64,000 nucleotides of DNA, taken from assembly GCA_964357255.1 (NCBI GenBank), contig CAYHKQ010000002.1:727-64726 (forward strand), read 5' to 3'. The translations under genes and the position numbers were made by a program. Shown here piece after piece: positions 1-16,312 of the stretch. How positions within the stretch are numbered: position 1 is the stretch's first letter; every line of letters begins with the position of its first letter. The notes beneath the pieces are model-generated. The model ran no database searches, had not been told where the DNA came from, and saw nothing but the letters and a program-made list of their open reading frames with translations. The stretch comes from an uncultured Elusimicrobia bacterium. GTDB lineage: Bacteria; Elusimicrobiota; Elusimicrobia; JACQPE01.

Positions 1-2803
1 CAAGACCGAACGGTATCGCCTGGCGGAAGCCCTGGCAGGAGCTTCGGGGCATGATGATGATCAATGGAGACTTCCTTGGAGCGCCCATCACCTGCTTCTC
101 CTAACGGCCACGCCGCATATGGGAAAGGACTATCCCTACTACGCCATCTGGCGGCTTCTCGAGCCGGAGATTCTCACCACGCCGGAGGCCTTTCACGAGT
201 TTCCCGCCGACCAGCGTCGATCCCGTTTCATCCGGCGTACTAAGGAGGAGATGGTTTACCTGGATGGCCGGCCCATGTATCCCAAACGGGTTTCCGATAC
301 TTTGGGCTACGACTTGACTCAAGGTGATGTCAGTGAGCAAAAACTTTATGACGAAACCACAGACTATCTACGGTTTGTCTACAACAAGGCGAAGCTGTTG
401 AATCGCGAGGCCGCACGATTGGCCATGAGCGTTTTTCAGCGCCGATTGGCCAGCTCGACCTACTCCCTCCTGCGCTCGTTTGAGCGCCGGATCGAAAAGC
501 TGGACAAATTCGTCGCCGACGTGCAGGACGGCAAGCTAACCCCAGACCAGCTTGTCACGCTGCAGCAGCGAATTCACGAGGACCATGACGTTCTGGAATC
601 TAAGACCGCGGATGATGAAGCCGGGGATGAAGGCCGCGAAGAAAACGAAATTGCCGAAGAAAAACTCCTTCAAGGCGTGGTCGCAGCCTCGCTTGCTGAT
701 TTGCTGGCTGAAAGAGAGCATGTCCAGCGGCTTCTCGATTTAGCGAAAAGGGTCCAGGATTCCGGCCAGGAGTCAAAATTCGAGAAGTTACGCGAGGTCT
801 TAACTGCATCCAAATTCAACGGCGAGAAGTTCATCGTTTTTACCGAGCATCGCGATACGCTCGACTTTATCGTTAGTCGGTTGGAAGGCATGGGCTACAC
901 AGGCCAAGTTGCACGAATCCATGGTGGCATGAGCACTCAACCCGACTCTGCGGCGGGTCTAAGCGAGCGCGAACGGCAGGTTGAATTCTTCCGTCGTTCT
1001 TTATCCGAAGGCGGCGCGCGGTTCCTTATATGCACGGATGCCGCAGGCGAAGGAATAAACCTCCAGTTCTGCTGGATCATGATCAACTATGACGTTCCCT
1101 GGAACCCGGCCCGCTTGGAGCAGCGCATGGGACGCATCCACCGGTACCTCCAAAAGCACGATCCCGTTATCATTGTGAACCTAGTCGCTCCCTCTACCCG
1201 CGAGGGGAAGGTCCTCAAGGTTTTGCTCGACAAACTTGAGAAAATTCGCAAGGAGCTCCAATCGGATAAGGTTTATGACTGCATCGGCCGGGTTTTTGAA
1301 GGCGTCTCCATCAAGCGGTATATGGAGTTAGCGGTGACCGAGGACGCCCAATCCGTGGCCCGCGAGTTGGATGGCCGGTTGACTAAGGAGCAGGTTGAGG
1401 CTATTGCCGCGCGGGAGAAGACCCTGTATGGGACCGGCGGCGACGTGGCCCAAGAACTCCCTCGTCTGCGGACCAATCTGGAGCACGATGTCTATTTTCA
1501 CCTTCTGCCCGGGTATGTGCGGCAATATGTCCAACAGGCTGCGCCGTTGGCAGGACTTGAAGTTGAAGGCGACATGGGGGGCGTTTTTTCTTTCCGGCCG
1601 GTCCGGCCCGGCGCCATTGATCCGCTGCTGTCTGTGCTTCAAATCTATCCCGAGAACTCCTGGGAGCGCCTTTCTGTTGCGCGCCCTATAGATCGCAAGG
1701 ACACCATCTGGCTCCACCCGGGAGAACCCATATTTGAACGATTCCGCGCGATTGTAAGCGAGCGATTGGCGGACGAGGGCAAACGTGGCGCAATATTTGT
1801 GGACCCGACAACGGAGAAGCCCTATCTGTTCCACCTGGCGCTCCTCTCCATTGTCCGGAAAGCGGACTCGGAAATCCCGGACCTTGCCCAAGAAGAATTG
1901 CTTGACTGCCGCCTCGTTGGGGTCAAGCAGTACGAAGGCTCGGAAATTACTCTCTGCCAGGTTGAACATCTCCTACTCTTGAAGGGTGGGCAAGGACTCC
2001 CTGCTTCTGCGCAGCGTCTAGCCGCAACTGCGAGTGAACAAAAAGAGTTTGCCCACGCTTATCTAGCTGAGCGTATGGCCCGGGAATTGGCACTCGAACG
2101 CAGAACGCGACTGCTGGATAGCCTGCCTGAACGGGAAAATTTCATTCTGCGGGGATTCGATTACCAAGAGATGGACTTGACCGCTGCCCGGGCCAAACAT
2201 ACTGGGAAAGCGCGTACCGGCAATCGCAAGGCCATCGAATCCCTGGAGGAAGTTAAGCGCCAACAGAAACTCCTAACTGGCCGCCGTGAAAATGCTCTGG
2301 CCTTGCTACGCCGCGAGCCAGAACTAATCGCGCCTGGACAGGTTACATTCATTGCCCATGCCTTGGTCGTGCCGTCCAGCGATCCAGTGGACATTGAACA
2401 GCATGAGGCTAATGTCGAGTTGGCCGCCATGAATCTGGCCCAGGCTTTCGAGGAGACGGCCGGGGCTACGGTTCATGATGTACATACCCCGGAGCTCGCC
2501 CGTTTGGCCGGGCTCCCGGACAATCCCGGATTTGACCTTCTCTCCGTTAGGCCCGGCAACGATAAGCGCGCCATAGAAGTCAAAGGCCGATCTGGCGCCG
2601 GAGAAATCGAGGTTTCCGCCAACGAGTGGGCCAAAGCCTGCAACATGCGCCAGGATTATTGGCTCTACACTGTTTATGATTGCGCCACCCCAAGCCCGCG
2701 ACTCATCCGGGTACAGGACCCTTTCGGCAGTCTCCTCGTGAAAGCCAAAGGGAGCATGCTAATTTCGTCATCGGAAATCACGGCGGCAGCACAAGCACAA
2801 TGA
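1..2803 (+). CDS. SNF2-family helicase (C-terminal half; 5' end truncated by the window edge) with a C-terminal DUF3883-like domain
   Basis: The frame is open from nt 2 with no stop before the first ATG at 119. Residues encoded at 92-190 read LLLTATPHMGKDYPYYAIWRLLEP, which is SNF2 motif III plus the ELWsLLnFL box. The helicase-C motifs IV-VI follow (FIVFTEHRDTL, LICTDAAGEGINLQ, QRMGRIHRYLQ). The C-terminus (GRSGAGEIEVSANEWAKACNMRQDYWLYTVYDC) resembles DUF3883. Confidence 0.75.
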   Translation, partial: KTERYRLAEALAGASGHDDDQWRLPWSAHHLLLLTATPHMGKDYPYYAIWRLLEPEILTTPEAFHEFPADQRRSRFIRRTKEEMVYLDGRPMYPKRVSDTLGYDLTQGDVSEQKLYDETTDYLRFVYNKAKLLNREAARLAMSVFQRRLASSTYSLLRSFERRIEKLDKFVADVQDGKLTPDQLVTLQQRIHEDHDVLESKTADDEAGDEGREENEIAEEKLLQGVVAASLADLLAEREHVQRLLDLAKRVQDSGQESKFEKLREVLTASKFNGEKFIVFTEHRDTLDFIVSRLEGMGYTGQVARIHGGMSTQPDSAAGLSERERQVEFFRRSLSEGGARFLICTDAAGEGINLQFCWIMINYDVPWNPARLEQRMGRIHRYLQKHDPVIIVNLVAPSTREGKVLKVLLDKLEKIRKELQSDKVYDCIGRVFEGVSIKRYMELAVTEDAQSVARELDGRLTKEQVEAIAAREKTLYGTGGDVAQELPRLRTNLEHDVYFHLLPGYVRQYVQQAAPLAGLEVEGDMGGVFSFRPVRPGAIDPLLSVLQIYPENSWERLSVARPIDRKDTIWLHPGEPIFERFRAIVSERLADEGKRGAIFVDPTTEKPYLFHLALLSIVRKADSEIPDLAQEELLDCRLVGVKQYEGSEITLCQVEHLLLLKGGQGLPASAQRLAATASEQKEFAHAYLAERMARELALERRTRLLDSLPERENFILRGFDYQEMDLTAARAKHTGKARTGNRKAIESLEEVKRQQKLLTGRRENALALLRREPELIAPGQVTFIAHALVVPSSDPVDIEQHEANVELAAMNLAQAFEETAGATVHDVHTPELARLAGLPDNPGFDLLSVRPGNDKRAIEVKGRSGAGEIEVSANEWAKACNMRQDYWLYTVYDCATPSPRLIRVQDPFGSLLVKAKGSMLISSSEITAAAQAQ

Positions 2804-2825
2804 ACCATTTGAAAGGAGATTATAA

Positions 2826-4019
2826 ATGACCGATAAAGAACTTGAAGCGCTCCTCGATGACATTGAATCGGACCGCGCGGAGCGTAAAGAATCACCATCG
2901 GACACGGGCAAAATCAGGCAAGCCATCTGCGCTTTCGCCAACGATATGCCAAATCATCGCCAGCCCGGCGTTTTATTCATCGGAGCCGACGATCTGGGAA
3001 ATCCCGTTGGACTCTCGGTAACAGAACAATTGATCCAAACGCTCTCGTCCATACGCTCGGATGGAAATATCCTGCCGCTTCCCGTCATGACCGTGCAAAA
3101 GCGAAAGCTTAAAGGGAAAGATTTGGCTGTGGTCGTGGTGCAGCCTTCAGACGCGCCGCCCGTTAAATTTAAGGGAACAATTTGGATTCGAGTTGGTTCG
3201 AGCCGGGCCATAGCGAGTCCCGATGAAGAGCGGCGACTGAGCGAGAAACGTCGGCACAAAGACCTTCCATTCGACGTTCGTCCAGTGGAAAGCGCGAAGA
3301 TGAATGTATTGGATGAGTTGGCCTTTCGCCAAATTTATCTTCCGTTGGCCGTTGCCGAAGATGTGCTGCGGCAGAACCAGCGCACGCTCGAAGACCAGAT
3401 GCTCGCATCAAAGTTCGCGCATACGGGTCCTCCCGTATGTCCGACGAACCTTGGAATTCTTTCCATCGGTAAAACCCCGACGGATTGGATCCCGTGCGCC
3501 TATATCCAGTTCGTGCGCTTTGCGGGCGGAACCCTTACAGATCCCATTAAGACGTCAAATGAGATCCGCGGTCCATTGCCGGAACTGCTTAGGAAGCTTG
3601 ACGAGATACTCAAGATCAACATTCAGGAAGCCCTGGATATCACCTCCGCAGACAAGGAGATCCGCAGGCCCGACTATCCGCTGGAGGCGCTCCAACAGCT
3701 TGCCCGCAATGCCGTTCTGCACCGCTCTTATGAGAATACAAACGCCCCCATACACCTGTATTGGTTTGAAGATCGCGTGGAAATTCAGAATCCTGGGGGG
3801 CCCTTCGGAGAAGTCAATCGAATAAACTTCGGCAAGACGGGAGTATACGATTATCGGAATCTCCATATTGCTACGGTCATGAAGGAATTGGGCTATGTTC
3901 AGCGATTTGGCATTGGGATTGAATTAGCGCGTAAGGCCTGCAGGGTCAATGGAAATCCGGATCCGGATTTCGCTGTAGAGGATACGTTCATAAGCGTAAC
4001 GTTGAGGAGGGCTTCATGA
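2826..4019 (+). CDS. AlbA_2/Schlafen-like putative DNA-binding protein with a C-terminal HATPase_c_4 (RecG-like C-terminal) domain
   Basis: The N-terminus is typical of AlbA_2 (KIRQAICAFANDMPNHRQPGVLFIGADDLGNPVGL). The C-terminus is RecG-C/HATPase_c_4-like (LARNAVLHRSYEN, RVEIQNPGGPFGEV). A GGAG ribosome-binding site precedes the start. The stop overlaps the next start (ATGA at 4016-4019). Confidence 0.6.
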   Translation: MTDKELEALLDDIESDRAERKESPSDTGKIRQAICAFANDMPNHRQPGVLFIGADDLGNPVGLSVTEQLIQTLSSIRSDGNILPLPVMTVQKRKLKGKDLAVVVVQPSDAPPVKFKGTIWIRVGSSRAIASPDEERRLSEKRRHKDLPFDVRPVESAKMNVLDELAFRQIYLPLAVAEDVLRQNQRTLEDQMLASKFAHTGPPVCPTNLGILSIGKTPTDWIPCAYIQFVRFAGGTLTDPIKTSNEIRGPLPELLRKLDEILKINIQEALDITSADKEIRRPDYPLEALQQLARNAVLHRSYENTNAPIHLYWFEDRVEIQNPGGPFGEVNRINFGKTGVYDYRNLHIATVMKELGYVQRFGIGIELARKACRVNGNPDPDFAVEDTFISVTLRRAS

Positions 4020-5008
4020 GCATTCCGGTTATCACATTCTTCAACAACAAGGGCGGCGTCGGCAAAACATCCATGATCTATCACCTCTCGCATATGTTCG
4101 CTGACAACGGCATGCGCGTGTTGTCGGCCGACCTTGATCCACAATGCAATTTGACGGCGGCGTTCATTGACGAAGACCGCTTGGAGGAAATATTCAAGGA
4201 CGGGTCGCACGACAAGACCATCTTAGGCGCCATTGGACCTATAAAAAGTGGAACGGGTGATATCGCCATGCCCTACGTCGAGCCAATAAATGACAATTTG
4301 AAAGTGATCATCGGGGATTTGGGTCTTTCCTCATTCGAAGATCATTTATCAGAATGCTGGCCGAAATGCCTTGCGGGTGACGAACGCTCCTTCCGGGTAA
4401 CATCCGCCTTCTGGCGCGTTTTGCAAATGGCCGGAAAGGACTGGGCGGATGTGGCGCTTATTGACGTTGGTCCCAATTTGGGCGCGACCAATCGTGCTGC
4501 CCTGATCGCATCCGATTACGTGGTGATCCCTCTCGGACCGGACATGTTTTCCCTGCAAGGATTAGACAATTTGGGTCCTGCCCTGCGAATCTGGAGGGCT
4601 GACTGGCGAGATAGACTTAGCCGCAAGCCCCAGATTAATTTTAATCTGCCTTCCGGCAAGATTGAACCGGTTGGCTATATGGTTTTAAGACACTCTATCA
4701 GGTTGGACCGTCCCGTTAAAGCCTTCGAGAAATGGATGGCGCGTATTCCGGAAACGTATGCCCGATCCGTACTCGATACTCCATCTGCGCGGACAGTGGC
4801 CTTGGATAATGACCCGCAATGCATCGCCAAGCTGCGCGACTACCGAAGCCTCATGCCGCTGGCCCAGGAAGCCAGAAAGCCGATGTTTCTTCTAAAGCCC
4901 GCTGATGGCGCATTGGGAGCGCACGCCAACGCCGTCCATGAGGTTTACAAAGAATTTTTTGCCGTTGCTAAGACTATCGCCAAGCGGACCAATCTCAAGA
5001 TGGAGTGA
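4016..5008 (+). CDS. ParA/MinD-family ATPase
   Basis: It carries a deviant Walker A (FFNNKGGVGKTSMIYHLS) and the ParA-type DLDPQCNLT box. It is translationally coupled to the upstream gene, and the downstream gene starts 4 nt after its stop. Confidence 0.7.
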   Translation: MSIPVITFFNNKGGVGKTSMIYHLSHMFADNGMRVLSADLDPQCNLTAAFIDEDRLEEIFKDGSHDKTILGAIGPIKSGTGDIAMPYVEPINDNLKVIIGDLGLSSFEDHLSECWPKCLAGDERSFRVTSAFWRVLQMAGKDWADVALIDVGPNLGATNRAALIASDYVVIPLGPDMFSLQGLDNLGPALRIWRADWRDRLSRKPQINFNLPSGKIEPVGYMVLRHSIRLDRPVKAFEKWMARIPETYARSVLDTPSARTVALDNDPQCIAKLRDYRSLMPLAQEARKPMFLLKPADGALGAHANAVHEVYKEFFAVAKTIAKRTNLKME

Positions 5009-5011
5009 ATC

Positions 5012-8000
5012 ATGTCCGATACATCACGTTTGATTGAACACGCTTTCCCCTTGAAGCAGACTTCTTTGGACTCGGTCCACGAGAAGAACGTTCGACATGG
5101 GCACATCTCTACCCTTCATATTTGGCCTGCGAGGCGACCGCTAGCAGCCTCACGGGCCGCCCTGATCGCCACGCTGTTGCCGGACCCGGGCACACCCGAG
5201 AAGCGAAAGGAGCTCTGCGAGAAGATCGGTGGTCAATTGGTCAAGAGCATCGAGAAGAAGAAGATGCCCAACGGGGAGGTCATTGAGCGCGAGAAGGAGA
5301 GTACCGAGGGCGGCATCCTCCATTGGGGTCGGGAGACCGAGAACAAAGCACTCTTGGAGTGGTTCCGAAAGGAAATCCGCAAGGCGTACGGAGGCCGAGC
5401 CCCCAAGGTCCTCGATCCTTTCGCCGGCGGCGGGGCGATCCCTCTCGAAGCGATGCGGCTGGGCTGCGAAGTCACGGCAGTGGACATCAACCCCGTGGCG
5501 TGGTTCATACTGAAGTGTACCCTGGAATATCCGCAGAAGCTCGCCGGCCAGACGCATCCATTACCGAAATTCATCCTTGACAACGACGAGTTCATGGAGG
5601 CGTTCTACAAGGCGCATCCGCAACTCGTTGGTCGGACGAGGTGGACCAAGAAACAGAAGGAGGACTTCTCTCAGGACCTTTTCATGCAAGAGAAGGAGGA
5701 CTCGGGCCGAGCCCCCAAGGCGGACTTAGCCTGGCATGTAAGGGCCTGGGGCCAGTGGGTGCTCGACCGGGCGCGGAAGGACTTGGCGAATTTTTATCCT
5801 ACCTATGCGGATTTCGAGCCAGTAGACAAGCTCAGCATGAAACCTTACGAGAAACAGCCCATGCGCTTGGTTCCTCTCAAAAAGGACGGGACACCGGGCA
5901 TCGAGTCGCTGAACAAGGACTTCAGCAAAGATTACTTGGCCGACAAACGCAATCCGCGATGGGTCGCCAAACCCACGGCAGCCTATTTTTGGGCGCGAGC
6001 GGTTAAGTGCAAGAATTGTCGGGCTGTGGTGCCTCTTCTCAAGACCCGTTGGCTCTGCAAAAAGGATCGGAAGCGCGTTCTCCTTGTGATGGAGCCAAAT
6101 GCGAAGAAGACTGGTGTAGTCTTTGGCATTGAGACGAACGTACCCGTGAAAGGCGGGAACGCTGCGCAGCGCCGCGAAGCCGACAAGCGGCTTGGTGCCG
6201 GCACGATGTCCCGCTCAGGTGCAAAGTGCCCTTGTTGCGGCGCCATCATGGAGATGGAAGCTCTCCGGCTTGAAGGCCAAGCTGGCCGGCTGTCTGACAT
6301 TAACACGGCGGTGCTCGTGGAGGGCCAGAATGGCAAGAAATATCGTCTTCCCACCAGCCATGAAACCAGCATGGTCGAAGAGGCGGCCAAGGCCCTTCAG
6401 TCGGTATTCAGTAATTTGCCTTTCGGCAGGCCGGACGACCCGATGCCTACCAAAGAGGCCCTGGGTTTTCGGGTCCCACTCTACGGCTTTGACAAATGGA
6501 GCAAACTATTTTCTGTCCGGCAGATGCTAAGCCTCGGTGTCCTCGTAAGCTGTCCACGAGAAATCGCAAGGACTCAGAAGCGCGCATATAACGATGAATG
6601 GCTGGCTGCCATCGTTTCCTACCTTGCGTTGGTCTGCGACAAGGTGGCCGACTACAACTCTTCGTTTTGCACGTGGCATAACTCCAAAGAACAGATGCGC
6701 CAAACTTTTGCGCGTTTTGCCATGCCCATGACATGGGACTGGGCAGAGCTATGCCCCGTCAACAATGTGGGGGGGTCGCTCCTGGCTCAGTTAGATTGGG
6801 TCGCCCGCTACGTCGATCATGCTCTTGTCGCCGGAGATGGGGCGCAACCCGTATCGGTGAGCCGACAATCGTCCACCTCTTTGGCCCTGGGTGGAGTGGA
6901 TGTAGTCGTGACCGACCCGCCGTACTATGATGCGATCACTTACTCAGACCTGATGGACTTCTTCTACGTCTGGTTGCGCAGGACCCTCAAGGGACTATCT
7001 CCGTCCTTCGATGAGGTGTTCGCGTTGCCACTCGCGCCAAAGTGGGATCATGAACGAAACGATGGCGAGCTGATCGACGATAAGAGCAGGCATGGCGGCG
7101 ACCGTCAGAAGTCTAAGGCGGTATACGAGGAAGGCATGGCCCGTGTGTTCCAAGCATGCCATGCCGCTCTGGTCCCTGACGGCAAACTGGTCGTCGTCTT
7201 CGCCCATAAACATCCAGATGCCTGGGAGACCCTTGTTTCGGCGATTATCCGTGCAGGCTTCACAGTGAACGGAAGCTGGCCGATCCAGACTGAGATGGGA
7301 ACCCGTATGCGGGCGTTGTCTTCGGCTGCCTTAGCATCCTCGGTCTGGCTTGTCTGCAAGAAGCGGCCCGCTTCGGCACGTCCGGGCTGGGACAACCAAG
7401 TTCTAGATGACATGCGCCGGAACATCCGCGAGAAACTGCGAGAGTTTTGGGATGCAGGGATTCGGGGCCCGGATTTCGTTTGGGCGGCAACCGGGCCAGC
7501 GCTGGAGGCCTACAGTAAGCATCCTGTCGTGAAGAAGGCTAACGAACCTGGGCCGATGTTGGTGGGTGAATTCCTGACGCATGTGCGCCGGATGGTTGTG
7601 GATTTTGTGGTTGGCCGGGTGCTTGCAGGGGAACAGGGAGGGGATGCAGAGCTTGCCGCTACGGACCGGCTGGATGAGCCAACGGCTTATTACCTGCTCC
7701 ACCGGCATGATTTTGGCATGGAAGAGGCTCCGGCGGGAGCCTGTATTCTCTACGCAATTTCGTGCGGTGTTTCGGATAAAGAGCTGTCCGACACCTGGGA
7801 CCTCATCGGATTCACGAAAGGCAAATTAGAAGAGGACGATGAAGAAGAGAAGGCTGACGTGGACGCAAAGACCGATTCGGATTCCGAGGAAGATTCCGGC
7901 AGTAAAGTAAAGCTCAAAACATGGGCGCAGCGTAAGGGCAAGTCTCTCGGCTACGAGGCTCCGGGTGGCAAGCCCATCCCGCTCATTGATCGCATCCATT

Positions 8001-8242
8001 GCCTAATGCACCTTTGGAAGGCTGGCGATCTGCCCAAGGTGGACGAATACCTGGATGACAACGGCCTGCGCCGACAGGAGCTATTTAAGCGGCTCCTACA
8101 GTCGCTCATCGAACTGTCCCCTCACGCAAGCGAGGAGCGTTCTTTGCTTGAATCTATCAGTAATCATGTCCAGGCAAAAGGAGCTGCGCCGGTTAAGGGG
8201 CCGGAACTGTTCGCCGCCGCAAGCCAGGAGGACGAGAGATGA
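5012..8242 (+). CDS. DUF1156-family DNA methyltransferase (N6A/N4C class; helicase- and DUF499-associated)
   Basis: The N-terminus is DUF1156-like (IEHAFPLKQTSLDSVHEKNVRHGHISTLHIWPARRP). It has the AdoMet motif LDPFAGGGAIPLEA and the catalytic motif IV VVVTDPPYYDAITY. There are Cys clusters (CKNCRAV, CPCCGA) and an acidic D/E/S-rich C-terminal linker. Confidence 0.75.
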   Translation: MSDTSRLIEHAFPLKQTSLDSVHEKNVRHGHISTLHIWPARRPLAASRAALIATLLPDPGTPEKRKELCEKIGGQLVKSIEKKKMPNGEVIEREKESTEGGILHWGRETENKALLEWFRKEIRKAYGGRAPKVLDPFAGGGAIPLEAMRLGCEVTAVDINPVAWFILKCTLEYPQKLAGQTHPLPKFILDNDEFMEAFYKAHPQLVGRTRWTKKQKEDFSQDLFMQEKEDSGRAPKADLAWHVRAWGQWVLDRARKDLANFYPTYADFEPVDKLSMKPYEKQPMRLVPLKKDGTPGIESLNKDFSKDYLADKRNPRWVAKPTAAYFWARAVKCKNCRAVVPLLKTRWLCKKDRKRVLLVMEPNAKKTGVVFGIETNVPVKGGNAAQRREADKRLGAGTMSRSGAKCPCCGAIMEMEALRLEGQAGRLSDINTAVLVEGQNGKKYRLPTSHETSMVEEAAKALQSVFSNLPFGRPDDPMPTKEALGFRVPLYGFDKWSKLFSVRQMLSLGVLVSCPREIARTQKRAYNDEWLAAIVSYLALVCDKVADYNSSFCTWHNSKEQMRQTFARFAMPMTWDWAELCPVNNVGGSLLAQLDWVARYVDHALVAGDGAQPVSVSRQSSTSLALGGVDVVVTDPPYYDAITYSDLMDFFYVWLRRTLKGLSPSFDEVFALPLAPKWDHERNDGELIDDKSRHGGDRQKSKAVYEEGMARVFQACHAALVPDGKLVVVFAHKHPDAWETLVSAIIRAGFTVNGSWPIQTEMGTRMRALSSAALASSVWLVCKKRPASARPGWDNQVLDDMRRNIREKLREFWDAGIRGPDFVWAATGPALEAYSKHPVVKKANEPGPMLVGEFLTHVRRMVVDFVVGRVLAGEQGGDAELAATDRLDEPTAYYLLHRHDFGMEEAPAGACILYAISCGVSDKELSDTWDLIGFTKGKLEEDDEEEKADVDAKTDSDSEEDSGSKVKLKTWAQRKGKSLGYEAPGGKPIPLIDRIHCLMHLWKAGDLPKVDEYLDDNGLRRQELFKRLLQSLIELSPHASEERSLLESISNHVQAKGAAPVKGPELFAAASQEDER

Positions 8243-8315
8243 ATTTTGGCCAGCTAATTTATAAACTTCTCTATGCTGCGCCGAGTATTCGATATAAAAG
8301 GGAATTTCCGGCGCC

Positions 8316-8714
8316 GTGACTGACGACTTTAGGGCCGTAGCGCCGCGCCATCTGAACGATGCGCATGTTTTATCTCAATCCAATCGTTGGGCTGCGGCTG
8401 CCTATATCGGGGGTTATGCGATTGAATGCGGTCTTAAGGCGTTTTTTCTAAAGTGGCAAGATGCGCGGGAATTTAGTCACGATATCCAGTGGTTGCACAA
8501 AGCAATAACGCTTCTTCATGTTGACTCAAGCTATGCAAAGTATGCTGTGCAATTGACCCCGCTTAGACCAGGCACGCTCTGCTGGAGCGAAAAACTGCGA
8601 TATAAAAAGGCCCATCCCGCATTTGATCCAAAATCTGTGAGCGATATCCTTGAAGACGCCTCGGCCATTGTTTGCTTAATGCAGGAGGCCATGTTGGACG
8701 GTAAGATTGCATGA
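8316..8714 (+). CDS. HEPN-domain protein
   Basis: The first helix is HEPN-like (AAAAYIGGYAIECGLKAFFLK). An Rx4H motif is present (EKLRYKKAHP). The gene sits in the lower-GC segment. Its stop overlaps the next start (ATGA at 8711-8714). Confidence 0.5.
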   Translation: MTDDFRAVAPRHLNDAHVLSQSNRWAAAAYIGGYAIECGLKAFFLKWQDAREFSHDIQWLHKAITLLHVDSSYAKYAVQLTPLRPGTLCWSEKLRYKKAHPAFDPKSVSDILEDASAIVCLMQEAMLDGKIA

Positions 8715-10042
8715 AATTGCATTTCTCTGAAACCCTGCTGGCCTCTGAAAAAGCTGCCTTGGCTTCGGGTATTGACAAATTCGCTGATGCCATCACCATT
8801 GTGCGTGACGTCTCCGGCAGGATTCGGTTGATTGTGGAAATAAAATTTGGAGTAGCCCTCGAAGGTCTTGCGGAATGCCAAAGGGCAAAGGATGAGCTGA
8901 AACTCAAGCTGGAAGATTATTTTGGAGGAATTGAATTTTTAACAATAAAAGAAACACGCAGTGATAAAATTATCCTGGATTTAATCGCTAAAACCCGCCA
9001 GAAACGAGAAGCTCCACCCGGTTCCCCCTGTTCCCAGTGGTATCTGCTAGAACGGCGTTTATCAAAAAATAGCTGGTTTGAAAAGCAAAATCCGCCTTGG
9101 CCCCTGCCAACATTGCAAAAACCTGCCCCCTTAATAGCATCCTTTTATTCATTTAAAGGCGGGGTTGGGCGAACCACGGCACTTGCCGCTGTAGCCATCA
9201 ATTTGTCGCGAGTCGGCAAACGCGTTGTGATTATTGATTTGGATCTTGAGGCCCCAGGGCTTGGCAGCTTGATGCAAGGAAGGACAACCTACGGGGCGCT
9301 CGATTATCTTTTTGAACATCCTGTTTTGGGAAGAGCGGAAACCCTGGATCCCTATTGTTCACTCCAAACAGAGCAAAAATTCATATTGACCGGCGAAGCT
9401 ATCCGCGTCATACCGGCAGGCGTCCTGAACGAGGAATATATTGAGAAACTTTCAAGGCTTAATTTTCTAACTCAACAACAAGATAATGGTGGTTCCGTGG
9501 CATCCGCGCTTTCCGATCTGTTGATTCAATGCCGCGACGCCTTTGGGGCGGAATACATTTTGCTCGACGCACGCGCAGGAATCCACGATATTGGGGGCCT
9601 AGCTTTGCATGGAATGTCCCATGTCAATATTCTATTTGGCAGAGCCAGTCCTCAATCGTACGAAGGATACTCCCTCATACTGCCAGAATTGGGCCGTTTG
9701 AATGTACAGCAAGGCGAGGATGCTCCCTTATGCCTGCCAGTTCACGCTTTCGCCCCCCCCGCAGGCGATCAAAACCGGGAAACGGAGATTGAGAATTTTC
9801 GTAGCACAATTTACGATCTTTTCGTTAATAACTACTATCCAAGTGAAGATGACATCCCGGATATTAATGATTCCGAGGCTGAACATTTTCCTTCGGTTTT
9901 GAGCTGGAATCCCTCGCTTGCCCGTTTTACGGATTTAACGGATGTCGTTGAATATTTAACGCAAGGGGAATACTCTGACTTAGCAGAGCGTCTCGCCGGC
10001 ATAAGAGGCGATTCTCTTTCCAGGAGGCAATCTTCCCCGTGA
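8711..10042 (+). CDS. ParA/MinD-like protein with a degenerate Walker A (KGGVGRT) and an about 150-aa N-terminal extension
   Basis: It has SFKGGVGRTTALAAVAINLS followed by VVIIDLDLEAPGL and ILLDARAGIHD (Walker B-like). The conserved P-loop Lys is replaced by Arg. The stop overlaps the GTG start of the next gene. Confidence 0.5.
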   Translation: MKLHFSETLLASEKAALASGIDKFADAITIVRDVSGRIRLIVEIKFGVALEGLAECQRAKDELKLKLEDYFGGIEFLTIKETRSDKIILDLIAKTRQKREAPPGSPCSQWYLLERRLSKNSWFEKQNPPWPLPTLQKPAPLIASFYSFKGGVGRTTALAAVAINLSRVGKRVVIIDLDLEAPGLGSLMQGRTTYGALDYLFEHPVLGRAETLDPYCSLQTEQKFILTGEAIRVIPAGVLNEEYIEKLSRLNFLTQQQDNGGSVASALSDLLIQCRDAFGAEYILLDARAGIHDIGGLALHGMSHVNILFGRASPQSYEGYSLILPELGRLNVQQGEDAPLCLPVHAFAPPAGDQNRETEIENFRSTIYDLFVNNYYPSEDDIPDINDSEAEHFPSVLSWNPSLARFTDLTDVVEYLTQGEYSDLAERLAGIRGDSLSRRQSSP

Positions 10043-11532
10043 GTTCTCTGAAATTAGAAAAACATAGCGCCTTGAATTCCGAGGAACGTCGCAACCTTCT
10101 AAATTCATTACTCGCGCTTTGTAAGCGAGATGCCGAAGATCCCAGCGAATCATCTCAGGATTTTCTTCGCCGTTTCTATAAGCACCCCCAATGCGATCAA
10201 GTCATGACGCCTGAGATTGTGCTCATTCTTGGCGTTCGGGGTGCCGGCAAAAGCGCCCTTTTTAAATATCTCCAGGCTGTGCGCGATTTTCCCGGTGGGA
10301 GCACCCTGATTTTACCCGCCTCGCAAAAAGATCTCTGGACACAAGGGCATGGTACTGGAGAAAATTTTCCACAGTCCGGCGTTCTTGGTCCGTTGGTCGC
10401 GCAAAAAAATACAAAGGATACGGCGGAGATGTTTTGGCTGGGACGATTGTTGGTAGCACTAATGAGGGTCCCGCGGATTGCTCCTATTCTTGAGAGTTCG
10501 CTAGGCCCGCTTTATTCGCAATTGAAAAATTTTGGAAACAGTCCCTCTAGCTGGCTTGACAATATTGCGTCAAAACGGGAAGAGGCGTATGGCGCGTTGG
10601 ATCAAATTGAGCGGAACCTCAAACAAGATAGCCTGCGGCTTTTTGTTGCCTATGATAATTTGGACGTCTTAACGCCGGATATCGAAGCCAGCAAGCGTTT
10701 GATCAGGCAGCTACTTCGCCAGTGGCTCGGTTTTTCCAATAGATACGCTTTTTTTCGCGGCAAGATTTTTTTAAGGGTTGATTTGTTTAAATCGAGCGAA
10801 CTTGATTTTCCTGACAGTTCCAAGCTTGCTGGAAAATCTATAAATCTAACCTGGGGCAAATCCCAGCTCTACGCCTTGCTTTTTAAGCGAATGGCTAATT
10901 TGTCCGGGGAGTGGGCCGAGTACCTAAAAAGCCTCTGCCCTGCCTTAATTTTAGAGAAAAAGGAAGCCCTTGGTTTTGTCCCCCAAAACGTAGGCGAACA
11001 AGAGCAAGCCGATATCATCAATGGTCTTGTTTCAGAAATGATGGGCAAAACAGCAAAAAAGGGCCGAACGGTTAAATGGATTCCTAACAATCTTCAAGAT
11101 GGCAATGGCGTGAGCGTTCCGCGCTCAATTTTTTCCCTGTTTGGAAACGCGGCGACGCACGAAACGACTGACCCAAAAGCAAAAAGGCGCCAACTATTGA
11201 CGCCGGATGATTTACGCTATGGTCTTGTCGAGGCCAGCAAGGCAAGGGTCAGCGAAATAGGAGAAGAAATGCCTTGGGTTGAAAGGGCTTGCAAAATACT
11301 CGAAGGGAAACGCGTTCCCCTTAAAAGGCACGAGTGTGAAAAATATTTTACCCAACTTCAGCTCAATGAAAATGATAACGAATGCCCCGCACACAACCCT
11401 TCAGAGTTGATTGATTGGCTGCACAATGTGGGTGTTTTGCGCTTGACAAAGGACGGCCGGATTCATATGCCGGATATTTACCGCTTGGCTTTTGGCGTCA
11501 AAAGAATAGGCGGGGTTCCGCTGCCAAAATAG
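10039..11532 (+). CDS. P-loop NTPase, family unassigned (Walker A GVRGAGKS)
   Basis: Motifs are ILGVRGAGKSALFKYL and a Walker B-like LFVAYDNLD. The GTG start at 10039 overlaps the upstream stop (GTGA). The region is lower-GC and A/T-rich. Confidence 0.45.
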   Translation: MSSLKLEKHSALNSEERRNLLNSLLALCKRDAEDPSESSQDFLRRFYKHPQCDQVMTPEIVLILGVRGAGKSALFKYLQAVRDFPGGSTLILPASQKDLWTQGHGTGENFPQSGVLGPLVAQKNTKDTAEMFWLGRLLVALMRVPRIAPILESSLGPLYSQLKNFGNSPSSWLDNIASKREEAYGALDQIERNLKQDSLRLFVAYDNLDVLTPDIEASKRLIRQLLRQWLGFSNRYAFFRGKIFLRVDLFKSSELDFPDSSKLAGKSINLTWGKSQLYALLFKRMANLSGEWAEYLKSLCPALILEKKEALGFVPQNVGEQEQADIINGLVSEMMGKTAKKGRTVKWIPNNLQDGNGVSVPRSIFSLFGNAATHETTDPKAKRRQLLTPDDLRYGLVEASKARVSEIGEEMPWVERACKILEGKRVPLKRHECEKYFTQLQLNENDNECPAHNPSELIDWLHNVGVLRLTKDGRIHMPDIYRLAFGVKRIGGVPLPK

Positions 11533-11572
11533 AGGGGAAAGACCATGACAAAAGAATTGGAAGGTAATTTCA

Positions 11573-14500
11573 ATGCCTAAACTGCCCTGGAAACCCTGGC
11601 ACGAGGTCGTAAAACTTCGCGAGGATTTACGTTCGGGTGAACTTTCGCTCAATATGTTCGCAGCGGACCTCTATGAGGTCCTGATGCAACGCGGGAAGAT
11701 GCCTGTTTATGAGAAGCCGGAGAATTTTTTCGCGCTGACATTCCCCACCTACAACCTGCGCCACCTCGTGCGCGACGTGGCGTTGCGCTTGGCGGGTAAA
11801 AACGACAAGGCCGTGCGCCAGTTGGAACTTACTTACGGCGGTGGCAAGACTCATACGCTCATCACTCTGCGCCACCTTGTCCATGAACCCGAAAAATTGC
11901 CAGATTTGCCGTCGGTGGCTGAATTCGTCCAGGAAATCGGCCAGAAGCCTCCCAAGTGCCGAGTCGCGGGCATCTGTTTTGACAAACTGGATGTAGAGAA
12001 GGGTATGGAAGTGCGCTCACCGGATGGCAAAGTCCGGACCTTGAAGCACCCTTGGAGCGTGCTGGCCTATCAAATAGCTGGCGATGCCGGCCTGAAGATT
12101 TTGCACGCTAACAACAAGGCCGAAGAACGCGAATCCGCGCCCGCTGAGAACCTGCTCACAGAGCTTCTGGAACTGCCGAATAAAGATGGATTGAGCACAC
12201 TTATCCTAATTGACGAAGTGCTGATGTATGCCAGAGAGAAGGTTGCCCAGGATAAGGAATGGAGGAGCAAGCTGGCGAACTTTTTTCATTATCTTACCGG
12301 GGCAGTGACTAAGGTAGACCGTTGTTGTCTGGTCGCCTCTCTCTTGGCCACCGACACGAGCAAAAGCGACTCTTTGGGACGCGAGATTCAAGCCGAGCTT
12401 TACAACATCTTTCAACGCCAACGCGAAGAAGCCGTCGAGCCGGTGGTGAAGGAAGACGTAGCTGAAGTCCTGCGCCGCAGATTTTTTGCGCCGGAGTCAT
12501 TGAAGGATCGAGATGCCTTCCGCCAGCATGTGATGGCTGCGCTCAAGGGTATCGGCGCGGTTGATGAACAAACTGCAAAGCAGGGTTCCGAGGCGGAGGA
12601 GCGTTTCCTTAAGAGTTACCCGTTCCATCCCGACCTGACAGAGGTTCTATATTCAAAGTGGACCCAGTTGCGCGGTTTTCAGCGCACCCGTGGCGTGTTG
12701 CGGACGTTCGCTTTGGCCTTGCGCGAGGCTGCGACTTGGGACGAGAATCCCCTGATCGGGCCTGCGATATTCCTTTCCGGGCCAGGGAAGGAGGGTCTTT
12801 CGGAGTCGTTGCGCGAATTGGTCACTGTCGCGGATACCGAGGAATGGGAGGGCAAAAAGCAGGCTTGGACAGGAATCCTGGACAATGAACTCTCTCAGGC
12901 CAGACGCATCCAGACCGAATCCGTCGCTCTGAGATTCCACGAGGTTGAGCAAGCGATTGTGGCGACCTTCCTGCATTCACAGCCCATTGGCCAAACAGCA
13001 AGAACCCGTGATCTTGCAGTGCTCCTCGGAGCCTCCCGCACGGATAAAATCGAGCTTGAGAAGGGTCTCTTGCGATGGGTGCAGACAAGCTACTGGCTTG
13101 ACGACCTATACACCGCTGTTTCCGAAGGGGCTTTGCCTGGCACTTGGCGGCTGGGCAACCGGCCGAACCTGACCCAGATGCATGCTGTCGTGGTCAAGAA
13201 TATGTCCGAGGATATGGTCCGGGCCCGCCTTTTCGATGAGGTCACGAAGGTAAAAACGCTTACTGCCAACGCCTCGGCGGCAGGCGTACGTGTCCACTCG
13301 CTTCCAGCAAGACCCAAAGATGTGGAAGACGAAGGCGCGTTTCATTATGCGGTTCTGGGGCCAAATGCGGCTTGCGAATCCGGTAAACCCAGTTCGGAGG
13401 CGGCACGATTTCTGGATGAGACGACAGGTCCAGACAAGCCCCGCGTCTATCGCAACTGCGTTCTGTTGCTTGCCCCGTCGAAGGATGGTTTAGAGCTCAC
13501 AATAGCCAGGATACGAGATTACCTCGCCTGGGAGGTGGTCCGCGAGGATATCAAAAAGCAGCAGAAGGACGGGAATGTCGATCCCGCCCGGGCCCAGACA
13601 TTGCAGATTAACATTGACAGAGCCAAGGCCCGCATCCCGGAAGCCATCAAGCAAGCCTACTGTATCGTAGTGACGGTTTCGGAAAAGGACGAGGTGCAGG
13701 CTTTTAAGATCACCATCTCGGAAGATACCCACTTCAATATTATCAAGACGGACCGGCGCTCTCGCGTCCAGGAGACGGCTGTCACAGCCGAGGCTCTGCT
13801 ACCGGAGGGCCCTTATAACCTCTGGCGTTCCGGCGAAAAGTCACGTCGCGTCAAGGATTTGGCCGGGGCTTTTGCCCAACTGCCACATCTGCCCAAGATG
13901 CTCAAAGCGAGCGCCATCCTCGAAACGCTCGTGGATGGGTGCGAGAAAGGAACATTTGTTTTACGACTTGTCCGCCCGGATGGAACGTCCCGGACGTGGT
14001 GGATGTCACGTCCGGACGATAACGCGCTCAATGATCCGGCGATGGAGTTGGTCCTTCCTAATACGGCAGAACTTGCAGATCTTTCTCCAGAGCTCTTGGT
14101 CCCCGGGAAGCTCCCTGACCTGTGGACTGAAAGTGAAATTATGGCCAAGACAGTCACCGAATATTTTGGCGGCTCGAAGGTCGTGCAAGTTGATCGTGGA
14201 GGCTACCGAGAGCCGATGCACATCCCAAAAGCCGGACAGACTATTGTGGATAAGGCCATCGGTGTGGCGGTAGAAAGCGGATCTATCTGGCTGCTTTCTG
14301 GCCCTTCCAGCATCCTTGGGGAACCTATGCCGGCAGGTATCCTCAACGCCAGCGCAAAGCTTTGCGCGCCTCCGGCCGTGATCGCCGCCGCGGAAATCCT
14401 GCCGGAGAATCTGCCGGCAGCCTGGAAGGACGTATCTGCTTCCGGACTTGCCATCTCAACTGCTTTGTCCGTGAAGGTTGGAAAGACATTGCCGTGGAAG

Positions 14501-14890
14501 ACTGTGAGGGGTGTAATTAGCAGCGCATTGCAGGCGCGATTCTTGGAGCTTACCCCTGATTCTAAGATTTGGCCCTGCGATCTGGCCGTCGCACAGTTCG
14601 CCAAATTCAAAGTCGCCATCCCAATCGCGGCCGGAGGATTTACCGTCGCCAGCGCAACAGGCAGCGGGTCAAAAGCGCTTATTGCAGCCGCCAATCTAGA
14701 GCCTTCGCAGGTTCAAGAGCTCGGCGATATCGTGCCAAAGCTACTGGCGATCAAGACCAAGGCAAACGTGCCCATACGATTCCACGTTCAGGTCGAGATG
14801 GGGGATGGTAAAACCCCGCCTCCACCCGAGACGGTGACTCAGGCGAACACCTTGCTCAAAAATGTGAATGCAGATCTGCAACTGCGATAA
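11573..14890 (+). CDS. DUF499-family ATPase (BrxC/PglY-like)
   Basis: The N-terminus is a DUF499 signature (PWHEVVKLREDLRSGELSLNMFAADLYEV ... TYNLRHLVRDV ... ELTYGGGKTHTLITL). The protein is 1105 aa. Confidence 0.75.
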   Translation: MPKLPWKPWHEVVKLREDLRSGELSLNMFAADLYEVLMQRGKMPVYEKPENFFALTFPTYNLRHLVRDVALRLAGKNDKAVRQLELTYGGGKTHTLITLRHLVHEPEKLPDLPSVAEFVQEIGQKPPKCRVAGICFDKLDVEKGMEVRSPDGKVRTLKHPWSVLAYQIAGDAGLKILHANNKAEERESAPAENLLTELLELPNKDGLSTLILIDEVLMYAREKVAQDKEWRSKLANFFHYLTGAVTKVDRCCLVASLLATDTSKSDSLGREIQAELYNIFQRQREEAVEPVVKEDVAEVLRRRFFAPESLKDRDAFRQHVMAALKGIGAVDEQTAKQGSEAEERFLKSYPFHPDLTEVLYSKWTQLRGFQRTRGVLRTFALALREAATWDENPLIGPAIFLSGPGKEGLSESLRELVTVADTEEWEGKKQAWTGILDNELSQARRIQTESVALRFHEVEQAIVATFLHSQPIGQTARTRDLAVLLGASRTDKIELEKGLLRWVQTSYWLDDLYTAVSEGALPGTWRLGNRPNLTQMHAVVVKNMSEDMVRARLFDEVTKVKTLTANASAAGVRVHSLPARPKDVEDEGAFHYAVLGPNAACESGKPSSEAARFLDETTGPDKPRVYRNCVLLLAPSKDGLELTIARIRDYLAWEVVREDIKKQQKDGNVDPARAQTLQINIDRAKARIPEAIKQAYCIVVTVSEKDEVQAFKITISEDTHFNIIKTDRRSRVQETAVTAEALLPEGPYNLWRSGEKSRRVKDLAGAFAQLPHLPKMLKASAILETLVDGCEKGTFVLRLVRPDGTSRTWWMSRPDDNALNDPAMELVLPNTAELADLSPELLVPGKLPDLWTESEIMAKTVTEYFGGSKVVQVDRGGYREPMHIPKAGQTIVDKAIGVAVESGSIWLLSGPSSILGEPMPAGILNASAKLCAPPAVIAAAEILPENLPAAWKDVSASGLAISTALSVKVGKTLPWKTVRGVISSALQARFLELTPDSKIWPCDLAVAQFAKFKVAIPIAAGGFTVASATGSGSKALIAAANLEPSQVQELGDIVPKLLAIKTKANVPIRFHVQVEMGDGKTPPPPETVTQANTLLKNVNADLQLR

Positions 14891-15424: not shown

Positions 15425-16312
15425 TTATTTCAACAAGCTTCGCTTTAATTGCTCCGGGGAGGGAAGCTCTCCTGCGAACTGTTTGGGCAACTTTCGGGAC
15501 AGGATGTATTGGGCGACGCTCATGAGTTTATTAACCCCTCGCAGGGCGTATTCGACCTCAAGGCTATCTTTCGATTTGCAGAGGATGATCCCGATAGATG
15601 GATTTTCGTCTGGCAGCCGCACTTGGTCGTCCAGTAAATTGAGGTAAAAGTTCATTTTACCGGCGTACTCCGGCAAGAAATCGGTCATTTTTAGCTCCAG
15701 GGCCACCAGGCATTTTAAATGGCGATGGAAAAAGAGTAGGTCTATGAAATACTCTTTGTCCTTGAGAGTCAGCCGGTACTGACTTCCTACAAAACAGAAA
15801 CCTAGGCCCAACTCAATCAGAAAATTGCGGATGTGATCCAAAAGCCCGCGCTCTAACTCTCGCTCCCGCGCGCCCTTTGTTAACGTCAAAAAGTCAAAAG
15901 TGTACGGGTCCTTAACAATCTCCTGGGCAAGATCGGATTGGGGCTCCGGCAGGGTGCGCCTAAAATTGGTGGCGGCCTTGCCCTGGCGCTCGCAAAGGCC
16001 GGATTCGATTTGATGGACAAGAACGGTGCGGCTCCAGCCGTTTTCCAGGGTCTGGCGGATATACCATTCGCGCTGGGCCATGCTTTTGACCGAATTGAGC
16101 AAAGTGAGGTTTTGTCCCCAGGGTATTTCTGCGACAAGCCCTCGCAGTTTTGGGTAATTCTGGTATTCATCGCGGAACCTGCGCATGTCCCATAGATTGC
16201 GAGGAGAAAATCCTTGCATATCGGGAAAGTCGCGGCGCAAATCCACAGAAAGCCGCTCCACCACAGCCAGCCCCCAACCCTGCGTCTTCTGGGATCGGGG
16301 GACACCATACAT
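15425..16312 (-). CDS. YhcG-like PD-(D/E)xK nuclease (DUF1016 family)
   Basis: The C-terminal core (KEYFIDLLFFHRHLKCLVALELK) fits the D...E-x-K architecture of DUF1016/YhcG. It is convergent with the DUF499 gene. Confidence 0.6.
   Translation of the reverse strand: MYGVPRSQKTQGWGLAVVERLSVDLRRDFPDMQGFSPRNLWDMRRFRDEYQNYPKLRGLVAEIPWGQNLTLLNSVKSMAQREWYIRQTLENGWSRTVLVHQIESGLCERQGKAATNFRRTLPEPQSDLAQEIVKDPYTFDFLTLTKGARERELERGLLDHIRNFLIELGLGFCFVGSQYRLTLKDKEYFIDLLFFHRHLKCLVALELKMTDFLPEYAGKMNFYLNLLDDQVRLPDENPSIGIILCKSKDSLEVEYALRGVNKLMSVAQYILSRKLPKQFAGELPSPEQLKRSLLK

Follow-up and report, generated by a model that had tools for sequence, protein, structure and literature searches.

A Schlafen-GHKL protein and a ParA-like ATPase as a conserved two-gene cassette nested in an Hma operon of an uncultured Elusimicrobia bacterium

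A stretch of 64,000 nucleotides (nt) from an uncultured Elusimicrobia bacterium (assembly GCA_964357255.1, contig CAYHKQ010000002.1), referred to here as the window, contains two adjacent genes between the helicase and methylase genes of a helicase-methylase-ATPase (Hma) system. Bases 1 to 14890 of the window form a single densely packed gene array on the forward strand. Within this array, the first gene of the pair encodes a protein that combines a Schlafen/AlbA_2 nuclease domain with a GHKL ATP-binding domain, and the second encodes a ParA-like ATPase (Table 1). The two genes are a self-contained, strictly conserved, and portable cassette. This cassette is independent of the Hma system, yet it is recurrently embedded in methylase-based systems.

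Table 1. Features of the window discussed in the text, with their positions and the basis of each assignment (AA, amino acids)
Feature	Position	Strand	Basis
HmaA, SNF2-type helicase with C-terminal NOV_C / PD-(D/E)XK domain	1-2803	+	PADLOC HmaA, E=3.7e-89, profile positions 309-1130; Pfam Helicase_C, NOV_C
Spacer of 22 nt with Shine-Dalgarno-like GGAGA at 2815-2819	2804-2825	+	Direct sequence reading; too short for a separate promoter
Schlafen-GHKL protein, stand-alone 'Schlatpase' of 397 AA with Schlafen/AlbA_2 nuclease domain and GHKL (HATPase_c_4) ATP-binding domain	2826-4019	+	Pfam; profile and fold matches
Predicted Schlafen catalytic motif E14-x4-E19-x-K21 (E14-SDRA-E19-R-K21)	2865-2888	+	Ex4(E/D)xK definition, PMC13056530
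SAFAN-like motif C35-A-F-A-N-D40	2928-2945	+	SAFAN motif of the SLFN-pAgo preprint; CAFAN(D) conserved
GHKL N-box Q291-L-A-R-N295	3696-3710	+	ExxxN spacing
ParA-like protein, ParA/MinD-class ATPase of 330 AA	4016-5008	+	Pfam AAA_31, CbiA
Deviant Walker A NKGGVGKT, residues 11-18	4046-4069	+	KGGxxK[ST]; N-K12-GGVG-K17-T18 in 71 of 71 family members
Family-specific C-terminal extension, residues ~200-330, ~130 AA	4613-5005	+	Conserved; matches no Pfam family
HmaB, DUF1156 N6-adenine DNA methyltransferase of 1076 AA	5012-8242	+	PADLOC HmaB, E=3.7e-120; Pfam DUF1156, MethyltransfD12
Second embedded cassette PDC-M28 in the HmaB/HmaC slot	8316-11532	+	PADLOC PDC-M28A/B/C, E=5.5e-16, 2.9e-62, 1.2e-76
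PDC-M28 HEPN gene	8316-8714	+	
PDC-M28 KGGVGR-motif ParA-superfamily ATPase	8711-10042	+	NCBIfam AAA_KGGVGR above cut-off
PDC-M28 Sll1717-family P-loop ATPase	10039-11532	+	NCBIfam ATPase_Sll1717 above cut-off
HmaC, DUF499 AAA+ ATPase of 1105 AA, last core gene of the host system	11573-14890	+	PADLOC HmaC, E=4.2e-76; Pfam DUF499

Domain content and conserved residues of the two proteins

The Schlafen-GHKL protein matches the Pfam family SLFN_AlbA_2 (PF04326) at residues 14-127 with 59.2 bits against a cut-off of 25.3, and HATPase_c_4 (PF13749) at residues 307-393 of the same polypeptide with 60.3 bits against a cut-off of 26. The ParA-like protein reaches 100.1 bits for AAA_31 (cut-off 27) and 47.8 bits for CbiA (cut-off 25.4). 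The AlbA_2, HATPase_c_4, and ParA assignments that a first-pass annotation had made from the sequence without database searches are therefore supported by profile matches above the cut-offs. The Schlafen-GHKL protein has an exact counterpart (100 % identity) at NCBI, an 'ATP-binding protein' of an Elusimicrobiota metagenome-assembled genome (MAG). Its C-terminus is the GHKL domain, and it does not carry the winged helix-turn-helix (wHTH) domain that is common in COG2865-type Schlafen-histidine-kinase proteins.

The catalytic residues were compared across 71 family members. E14 and E19 of the predicted Schlafen motif are invariant in all 71, and position 21 is a lysine in 49 and a threonine in 22 of them. 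In the GHKL N-box, N295, the predicted Mg-ATP asparagine, is found in every member, and position 291 is a glutamine in 50, including the window, and a glutamate in 21. Positions 21 and 291, whose codons lie at nt 2886-2888 and 3696-3698, covary: K21 occurs with Q291 in 49 members, among them the window, and T21 with E291 in 21, with a single exception. The two combinations may represent two subclades between which nuclease and ATPase competence are traded off. In RzAgo, E314 is the catalytic base glutamate and N318 the Mg-ATP asparagine, and mutation of E314 abolishes hydrolysis but keeps ATP binding and oligomerization (10.64898/2026.05.29.728809). The equivalence of Q291 and N295 to these residues is taken from the ExxxN spacing and not from a structural alignment. 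A glutamine at the position of RzAgo E314 together with the retained N295 points to an ATP-binding switch with little turnover, and the GHKL domain of the window protein probably binds ATP and is poor at hydrolysis.

In the ParA-like protein, the Walker A, A', and B residues K12, K17, D39, D41, and D150 are likewise invariant in 71 of 71 members. The C-terminal extension contains the conserved segments …YRSLMPLAQEARKPMF… and …RHSIRLDRPVKAF…YRSLMPLAQEARKPMFxLKPADGALGAH…. The protein stays far under the NCBIfam cut-offs of all partition, MinD, and BcsQ equivalogs, for example with 56 bits against 180 for NF041546 ParA_partition and 64.7 against 348 for TIGR03453 RepA. Judged by these profiles, it is not a partition ParA.

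The nearest solved structure to the ParA-like protein is 3pg5 (DIP2308, an uncharacterized protein of Corynebacterium diphtheriae), which aligns with residues 5-201 at E=9e-34. For the Schlafen-GHKL protein, a profile search against solved structures identified 3lmm (DIP2311) at E=2.4e-12. Both structures are uncharacterized structural-genomics targets of C. diphtheriae whose locus tags are three apart, and they may represent a distantly related neighborhood of ParA-like and Schlafen-GHKL-HTH genes. AlphaFold models reached a pLDDT score of 45.7 for the ParA-like and 61.5 for the Schlafen-GHKL protein, since the alignments of close homologs were too shallow. The fold search was run with the latter model alone. 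Foldseek matched this low-confidence model to 3lmm, 2kyy, the SLFN11 N-domain 7fex, and histidine-kinase CA domains, which is weak support. Compared with PADLOC-DB v2.0.0, neither protein has a full-length match to any system model: the Schlafen-GHKL protein gave partial matches to prokaryotic Argonaute (pAgo) and Aga domain regions, with the pAgo model PDLC02394 aligned to residues 27-325, and the sole match of the ParA-like protein is the P-loop of PDC-M28B at residues 3-41.

Conservation and genomic contexts of the pair

The family, which is very large and unusually conserved, was collected with the ParA-like protein as the only query, which gave at least 7,994 database matches at E<1e-10, many of them 65-70 % identical. 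A scan of GTDB with one genome per species confirmed at least 516 relatives, and the following analyses are based on the best 80 loci (L numbers below denote individual loci). More than 15 phyla are represented among these loci, such as Planctomycetota, Cyanobacteriota, Acidobacteriota, Chloroflexota, Actinomycetota, Nitrospirota, Pseudomonadota, Spirochaetota, Campylobacterota, and Omnitrophota, and the ParA-like proteins are 51-67 % identical to that of the window. This patchy phyletic distribution with more than 50 % identity fits horizontal transfer.

In all 80 loci, an AlbA_2/HATPase_c_4 coding sequence lies directly upstream of the ParA-like gene on the same strand. The sequence is complete in 67 loci; in the other 13, a contig end truncates it, a frameshift splits it, or only a remnant is left. 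An independent metagenome sample showed the upstream Schlafen gene in 42 of the 43 loci with room for it. This adjacency is far beyond chance. The 4-nt start/stop overlap is exact in 29 of the 71 loci analyzed, and in 35 more the ParA-like start is two residues shorter, a two-codon offset that would probably give the same overlap. The two genes are probably translationally coupled. The pairwise distances of the two proteins show a moderate correlation (Pearson r=0.51, Spearman 0.33), only loosely in line with joint inheritance. A 536-AA match (P0002) considered as a fusion protein, and hence as a sign of physical interaction, is an assembly artifact with an internal duplication and no fusion.

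The Schlafen-GHKL gene is decayed in some loci. In L010 (9440-9610) and L011 (1154-1270), both embedded in Hma, a remnant of 39-57 AA is found beside intact ParA-like and hma genes, and the gene is split by frameshifts in L018, L047, and L084 too. Such decay would fit the loss of a putative toxic effector.

Hma genes surround the pair in 8 of the 80 loci (~10 %; L010, L011, L013, L017, L024, L043, L049, L076). Wherever both flanks are visible among them, the pair occupies the slot between HmaA and HmaB, as in the window. This applies to distant Hma loci (L013, L017, L024, L049), and the closest metagenomic relatives, which are 71-100 % identical (L005-L007, L089-L091), also lie in the same slot of an Hma system. 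In a neighbor-joining tree of the concatenated pair, built without support values, the copies embedded in Hma are spread over no fewer than five distinct positions. Taken at face value, this scatter indicates that the pair moved repeatedly into or out of Hma. The pair is further found in a bacteriophage exclusion (BREX) locus with the order BrxC, pair, PglX (L028), adjoins BrxC in L083, and lies near N6_N4 DNA methylases in L051, L053, and L087, the first of these with a weak type III restriction-enzyme match downstream. L028 (5330-14511) belongs to a Pirellulaceae MAG and contains a second AlbA_2-family paralog of ~435 AA further downstream. In total, methylase-based systems are linked to the pair in ~13 of the 80 loci, and the remaining ~84 % stand alone. 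The stand-alone loci L001-L004 and L008 have no hma genes next to the pair either.

Both statistically and by position, the pair genuinely favors Hma, BREX, and methylase loci, which fits the published pattern of guilt by embedding. The link to methylation-based defense drawn in the first-pass annotation is upheld by the shared HmaA/HmaB slot in close and distant relatives and by the BREX locus. The annotation also regarded the coupling to the helicase and methyltransferase as obligatory. This is not supported, since ~84-90 % of the copies have no such neighbor and the conserved unit is thus the pair itself. With regard to co-occurrence with DUF1156 methyltransferases in other genomes, proposed there as a check, hma genes accompany the pair in 8 of the 80 loci, and most loci lie outside Hma.

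Among the stand-alone loci, the immediate co-directional neighbors are UvrA (3 loci), UvrB, MutS, gyrase/topoisomerase IV, ribonucleotide reductase, tRNA synthetases, Kdp proteins, and metabolic enzymes. Clustering of ~1,000 flanking open reading frames (ORFs) revealed no recurrent third gene but only common families, such as sigma-54 activators, ATP-binding cassette (ABC) transporters, and P-type ATPases, and some antisense ORF artifacts. Large upstream neighbors of ~1,160-1,190 AA in L021, L031, L044, and L072 were rejected as a partner, as they have no PADLOC match and are mutually unrelated. No close homolog was found in 72,556 plasmids (best match 35 % identical) or in 50,697 phage records (best match 27 % identical). 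For this reason, carriage of the pair by plasmids or phages as well as a partition or phage origin were rejected.

At the sequence level, the junctions of the pair in the window are tight. The TGA stop of the helicase gene ends at 2803, and the ATG of the Schlafen-GHKL gene at 2826 lies 23 nt past the last stop base. The Schlafen-GHKL stop overlaps the ParA-like start in the ATGA at 4016-4019, and the methylase ATG at 5012 follows the ParA-like stop, which ends at 5008. These junctions, which the annotation gave as 23 nt, ATGA, and 4 nt, and its coordinates were reproduced by direct reading, and so was the tight packing between the helicase and the DUF1156 methylase (22-nt spacer, ATGA overlap, and 3-nt spacer). 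A promoter and terminator scan of the junctions gave no signal exceeding the shuffled expectation, which makes co-transcription of the pair with the Hma operon plausible.

With HmaA, HmaB, and HmaC in a single locus, the host operon is an Hma system. It is also known under the recent name type-1 DUF499-centered BREX-related (BR) system, whose helicase carries a C-terminal PD-(D/E)XK domain (PMC12839542). The corresponding domain of the window's helicase is NOV_C, as described for type-1 BR. The left window edge truncates the HmaA gene, so that the window contains the C-terminal ~930 AA and the N-terminal ~300 AA lie upstream. Its frame 2 is open from base 2, the SNF2 motif LLLLTATP is read in frame, and the full-length homolog in L005/L006 has 1192 AA. 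Two nested cassettes are present in this operon, one per inter-core slot. The guanine-cytosine (GC) content of the Schlafen-ParA pair is 0.52, near the window mean of 0.53, and that of the Hma core genes is 0.56-0.57. PDC-M28 has a GC content of 0.475-0.49 and of 0.45-0.49 at third codon positions (GC3). Being well under that of the Hma genes, its GC content suggests that PDC-M28 was inserted more recently into the operon. Like the Schlafen-ParA pair, PDC-M28 joins a predicted RNase with an ATPase of the ParA/MinD superfamily. Directly past HmaC, a YhcG/DUF1016 PD-(D/E)XK nuclease gene is located at 15425-16312 on the reverse strand. The operon of the related Hma locus L005 itself contains a YhcG/DUF1016-family gene, along with a Y1 transposase and fragmented hma genes.

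The wider ParA-like clade and its partners

DIP2308-like proteins align end to end with the ParA-like protein of the window, including the C-terminal motif (27 % identity, E=9e-40). In the four non-Corynebacterium members examined, a SIR2_2 gene lies directly downstream in each case. The two genes overlap by 4 nt in L097 and L101/L102, and they are separated by 7 nt in L098 and by 80 nt in L096. In the metagenome sample, a SIR2_2 gene directly follows the sister ParA-like gene in 22 of the 23 loci with room, and the SIR2 partners show matches to the corresponding modules of ThsA, LmuA, and Dsr. The loci of this sister branch are L096-L102 and L104-L128 (e.g. L097, 7001-8898), and their ATPase has no PADLOC v2 model. 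In Corynebacterium, the members are located in islands that also contain MmeI-type restriction-modification, GmrSD, Fic, and DUF4420/DUF6339 genes.

Relatives also occur in phages and on plasmids. The P22-like phages ST160 and SE1 encode a full-length relative with 25 % identity between the c2 repressor and gene 24, an interval that is a classic site of prophage-encoded exclusion genes. Its neighbor is a DUF3024 protein, the PADLOC candidate PDC-S43 (L094, Salmonella phage ST160, NC_014900.1, 3509-5062). Plasmid relatives are found among toxin-antitoxin genes, RES-domain proteins, 'mobile mystery proteins', and a type I restriction-modification system. No common partner was found for ten more distant ParA-like loci with 31-40 % identity. 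As a whole, one ATPase clade has alternative effector-type partners, a pattern typical of immune systems.

Proposed function and comparison with known systems

Recent studies provide the background for a functional interpretation. Bacterial Schlafens are phage-activated tRNases, of which Schlafen-HisKinase proteins make up 34 %, and their catalytic motif Ex4(E/D)xK has been defined for human Schlafens as well (PMC13056530). Cash acts in defense by tRNA cleavage with the catalytic residues E17-D22-K24 (PMC13462974). In SLFN-pAgo, whose Schlafen and GHKL domains make up the 'Schlatpase' supradomain, ATP binding to the GHKL domain leads to a tetramer that acts as a tRNase (10.64898/2026.05.29.728809). 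Schlafen RNases with a minimal histidine kinase were described as 'backup effectors' tied to BREX/DUF499 cores in at least 1017 taxa (PMC12839542), and published Schlafen-ATPase clusters are tied to BREX, restriction-modification, and CRISPR. According to Payne 2024 (10.1101/2024.01.29.577857), 1,485 Hma systems were found in more than 230,000 genomes, and 62.7 % of them contain embedded genes. The paper counts 376 Hma-embedded cassettes, and of the embedded cassettes tested, 7 of 9 conferred defense. It also reports COG2865 AlbA_2/HATPase_c_4/HTH proteins (FAM_00002) as a top family embedded in BREX, defense island system associated with restriction-modification (DISARM), and type I restriction-modification loci.

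From homology and context, we infer with moderate confidence that the pair is an autonomous second-line module of the abortive-infection type, separate from the methylase machinery. Nested in the HmaA/HmaB slot, the cassette would act on its own. Upon infection, the Schlafen domain would cleave tRNA or other RNA, and ATP binding to the GHKL domain would drive the oligomerization that builds the active nuclease. The ParA-like protein, a dedicated dimerizing ATPase, would hold back or free the nuclease as its sensor or gatekeeper, and it may substitute for the DNA-binding wHTH found in cis in most Schlafen-histidine-kinase proteins. The main reason for assigning a sensor or regulator role to the ParA-like protein is the alternative effector partners across its clade. 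The interpretation as a whole is based on the motifs, the strict pairing, the independence from Hma, guilt by embedding, the mechanism known from Schlatpases, and the SIR2-coupled relatives.

Several observations weigh against this interpretation. The glutamine at the GHKL catalytic glutamate in the window's clade and the threonine in place of K21 in ~30 % of the family mean that activity may differ between the clades. The AlphaFold models of both proteins are poor, and the pair is not covered by a PADLOC v2 model. Its conservation, with 50-70 % identity across phyla, is unusually high for an immune gene, and a recognizable defense gene is not immediately beside most copies. Furthermore, the Schlafen-HisKinase fusions tested in the literature gave no protection against a panel of coliphages (PMC13056530).

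A rival interpretation is a non-immune cellular role, such as a stress-responsive RNase or regulator or a nucleoid-associated surveillance of RNA or DNA, with the pair hitch-hiking into a permissive slot of Hma. The mostly housekeeping neighbors, including UvrA, UvrB, MutS, gyrase, ribonucleotide reductase, and tRNA synthetases, agree with such a role, as do the high conservation and the lack of close homologs in the plasmid and phage records searched. In addition, 30 % of bacterial Schlafens lie away from defense genes, and tested HisKinase fusions were inactive (PMC13056530). However, a patchy multi-phylum distribution that fits horizontal transfer, repeated embedding in three kinds of methylase-based defense loci, and sister ParA-like proteins with SIR2 effectors in defense islands or prophage immunity regions make a non-immune role unlikely. 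A DNA partition or maintenance module, in which a ParA motor and a DNA-binding adaptor segregate a mobile element, is highly improbable. The ParA-class Walker A, the AAA_31 and CbiA matches, and the PHROG description 'ParA-like partition protein' are in line with it, and AlbA-type domains can bind nucleic acid. Nevertheless, the bit scores for the NCBIfam partition models are far below their cut-offs, the gene order is opposite to that of par operons, and the partner protein has an intact nuclease motif. The copies are chromosomal, with contigs reaching megabase length, the best match among the plasmids has an identity of only 35 %, and no recurrent third gene was found across the loci, although no search was aimed at ParB or centromere repeats.

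The first-pass annotation had suggested that the two proteins are foreign-DNA sensors or localization factors of the helicase and methyltransferase. As a working Hma accessory, the pair would need Hma for its function and would serve to recognize foreign DNA or to place the complex on DNA. The tight packing in the window could be read in this way, and so could the retention of the HmaA/HmaB slot in Hma systems that share only 28-72 % core-protein identity with the window, as well as the scatter of Hma-embedded pairs on the tree. Moreover, 8 of 80 loci in Hma far exceed the expectation from the rarity of Hma given in Payne 2024, and PMC12839542 argues for a functional integration of the 'backup effectors'. 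On the other hand, ~84-90 % of the copies are without an Hma, BREX, or restriction-modification neighbor, and the same pair is found in BREX too. Hma without the pair is the norm, and the other slot of the window operon contains an unrelated cassette. In L010 and L011, the Hma genes persist beside a Schlafen gene that has decayed to a remnant. A function as Hma accessory is therefore distinctly unlikely, and the suggested sensor or localization role is not supported, as the pair is conserved by itself. The reading as an obligatory component wired into the operon is not supported for the same reason.

Beyond the autonomous module proposed for the window, a more general and tentative proposal is that the C-terminally extended ParA-like ATPases form an undescribed family of two-gene immune modules, which we consider possible rather than probable. 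The ATPase, a member of the SIMIBI class, would be the infection sensor or switch for interchangeable effectors. These would be an upstream Schlafen-GHKL RNase, a downstream SIR2 protein of the NADase type in Actinobacteria and metagenomes, and possibly DUF3024/PDC-S43 in P22-like prophages. If true, the sensor chassis that recur in prokaryotic immunity, namely signal transduction ATPases with numerous domains (STAND), ABC/OLD, and AAA+ NTPases, would be joined by ParA-class ATPases, and the cassette of HEPN and KGGVGR-ATPase genes in the window operon would be a parallel case. If the pattern of a ParA-like protein with swappable effectors holds, it would add a new class of NTPases to the sensor designs of bacterial immunity.

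The relevance of the pair arises from the current interest in Schlafens, whose role as antiviral tRNases in bacteria as well as humans was demonstrated in 2025-2026. The fusion of a Schlafen domain with a histidine-kinase-like ATPase is the commonest bacterial Schlafen architecture and is without a known trigger or partner. For one large, widely transferred clade, the Schlafen-GHKL protein always comes with a specific ParA-like ATPase, which makes the latter a candidate for the missing sensor or regulator. For the annotation of Hma and BREX loci, it is also relevant that tight packing inside a restriction-like operon need not mean membership.

The embedding of cassettes in Hma and the presence of Schlafen-histidine-kinase RNases in BREX/Hma loci were already known from work published in 2024-2026. 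The link between Schlafens and methylation highlighted as notable in the first-pass annotation had already been published (Payne 2024; PMC12839542; PMC13462974; PMC13056530). The obligate ParA-like partner appears to be undescribed, and it is new together with the clade-wide swapping between Schlafen and SIR2 partners. Full-text searches of the literature covered here found no account of a ParA-Schlafen or ParA-SIR2 module and nothing relevant on DIP2308/3pg5, and a ParA partner is not mentioned in PMC12839542 or the other Schlafen and Schlatpase papers compared.

With the deviant-Walker-A ATPases ParA, Soj, and MinD, the ATPase of the window shares the signature lysine of KGGVGKT, the Walker A' and B residues, and the AAA_31 fold region at residues 5-200. 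It differs from them in the conserved C-terminal region of ~130 AA, in having no recurrent ParB-like neighbor, and in the SIR2 or Schlafen effectors that accompany its clade. The cassettes of Payne 2024, including PDC-M28, are likewise short, nested between core hma genes, and found outside Hma and in BREX too, whereas the pair with its ParA-like ATPase goes unnamed in the passages and tables of that work examined here. The 'backup effectors' of PMC12839542 have the same Schlafen and GHKL architecture and the same type of host, a type-1 BR/Hma system with a PD-(D/E)XK helicase. In contrast to them, the window protein has no wHTH and is coupled instead to a separate ParA-like gene, and most of its copies lie outside BREX/BR. 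Finally, RzAgo, pSlfn, and Cash resemble the window protein in their Schlafen domain with Ex4(E/D)xK and SAFAN-like motifs and in the fused PF13749 GHKL domain, and by analogy an ATP-driven oligomerization with tRNase output is plausible for the window protein. In contrast to these proteins, it carries no Argonaute, CARF-like, or Ig-like sensor in cis and has a glutamine in place of the GHKL catalytic glutamate, and its regulator would be the ParA-like ATPase acting in trans.

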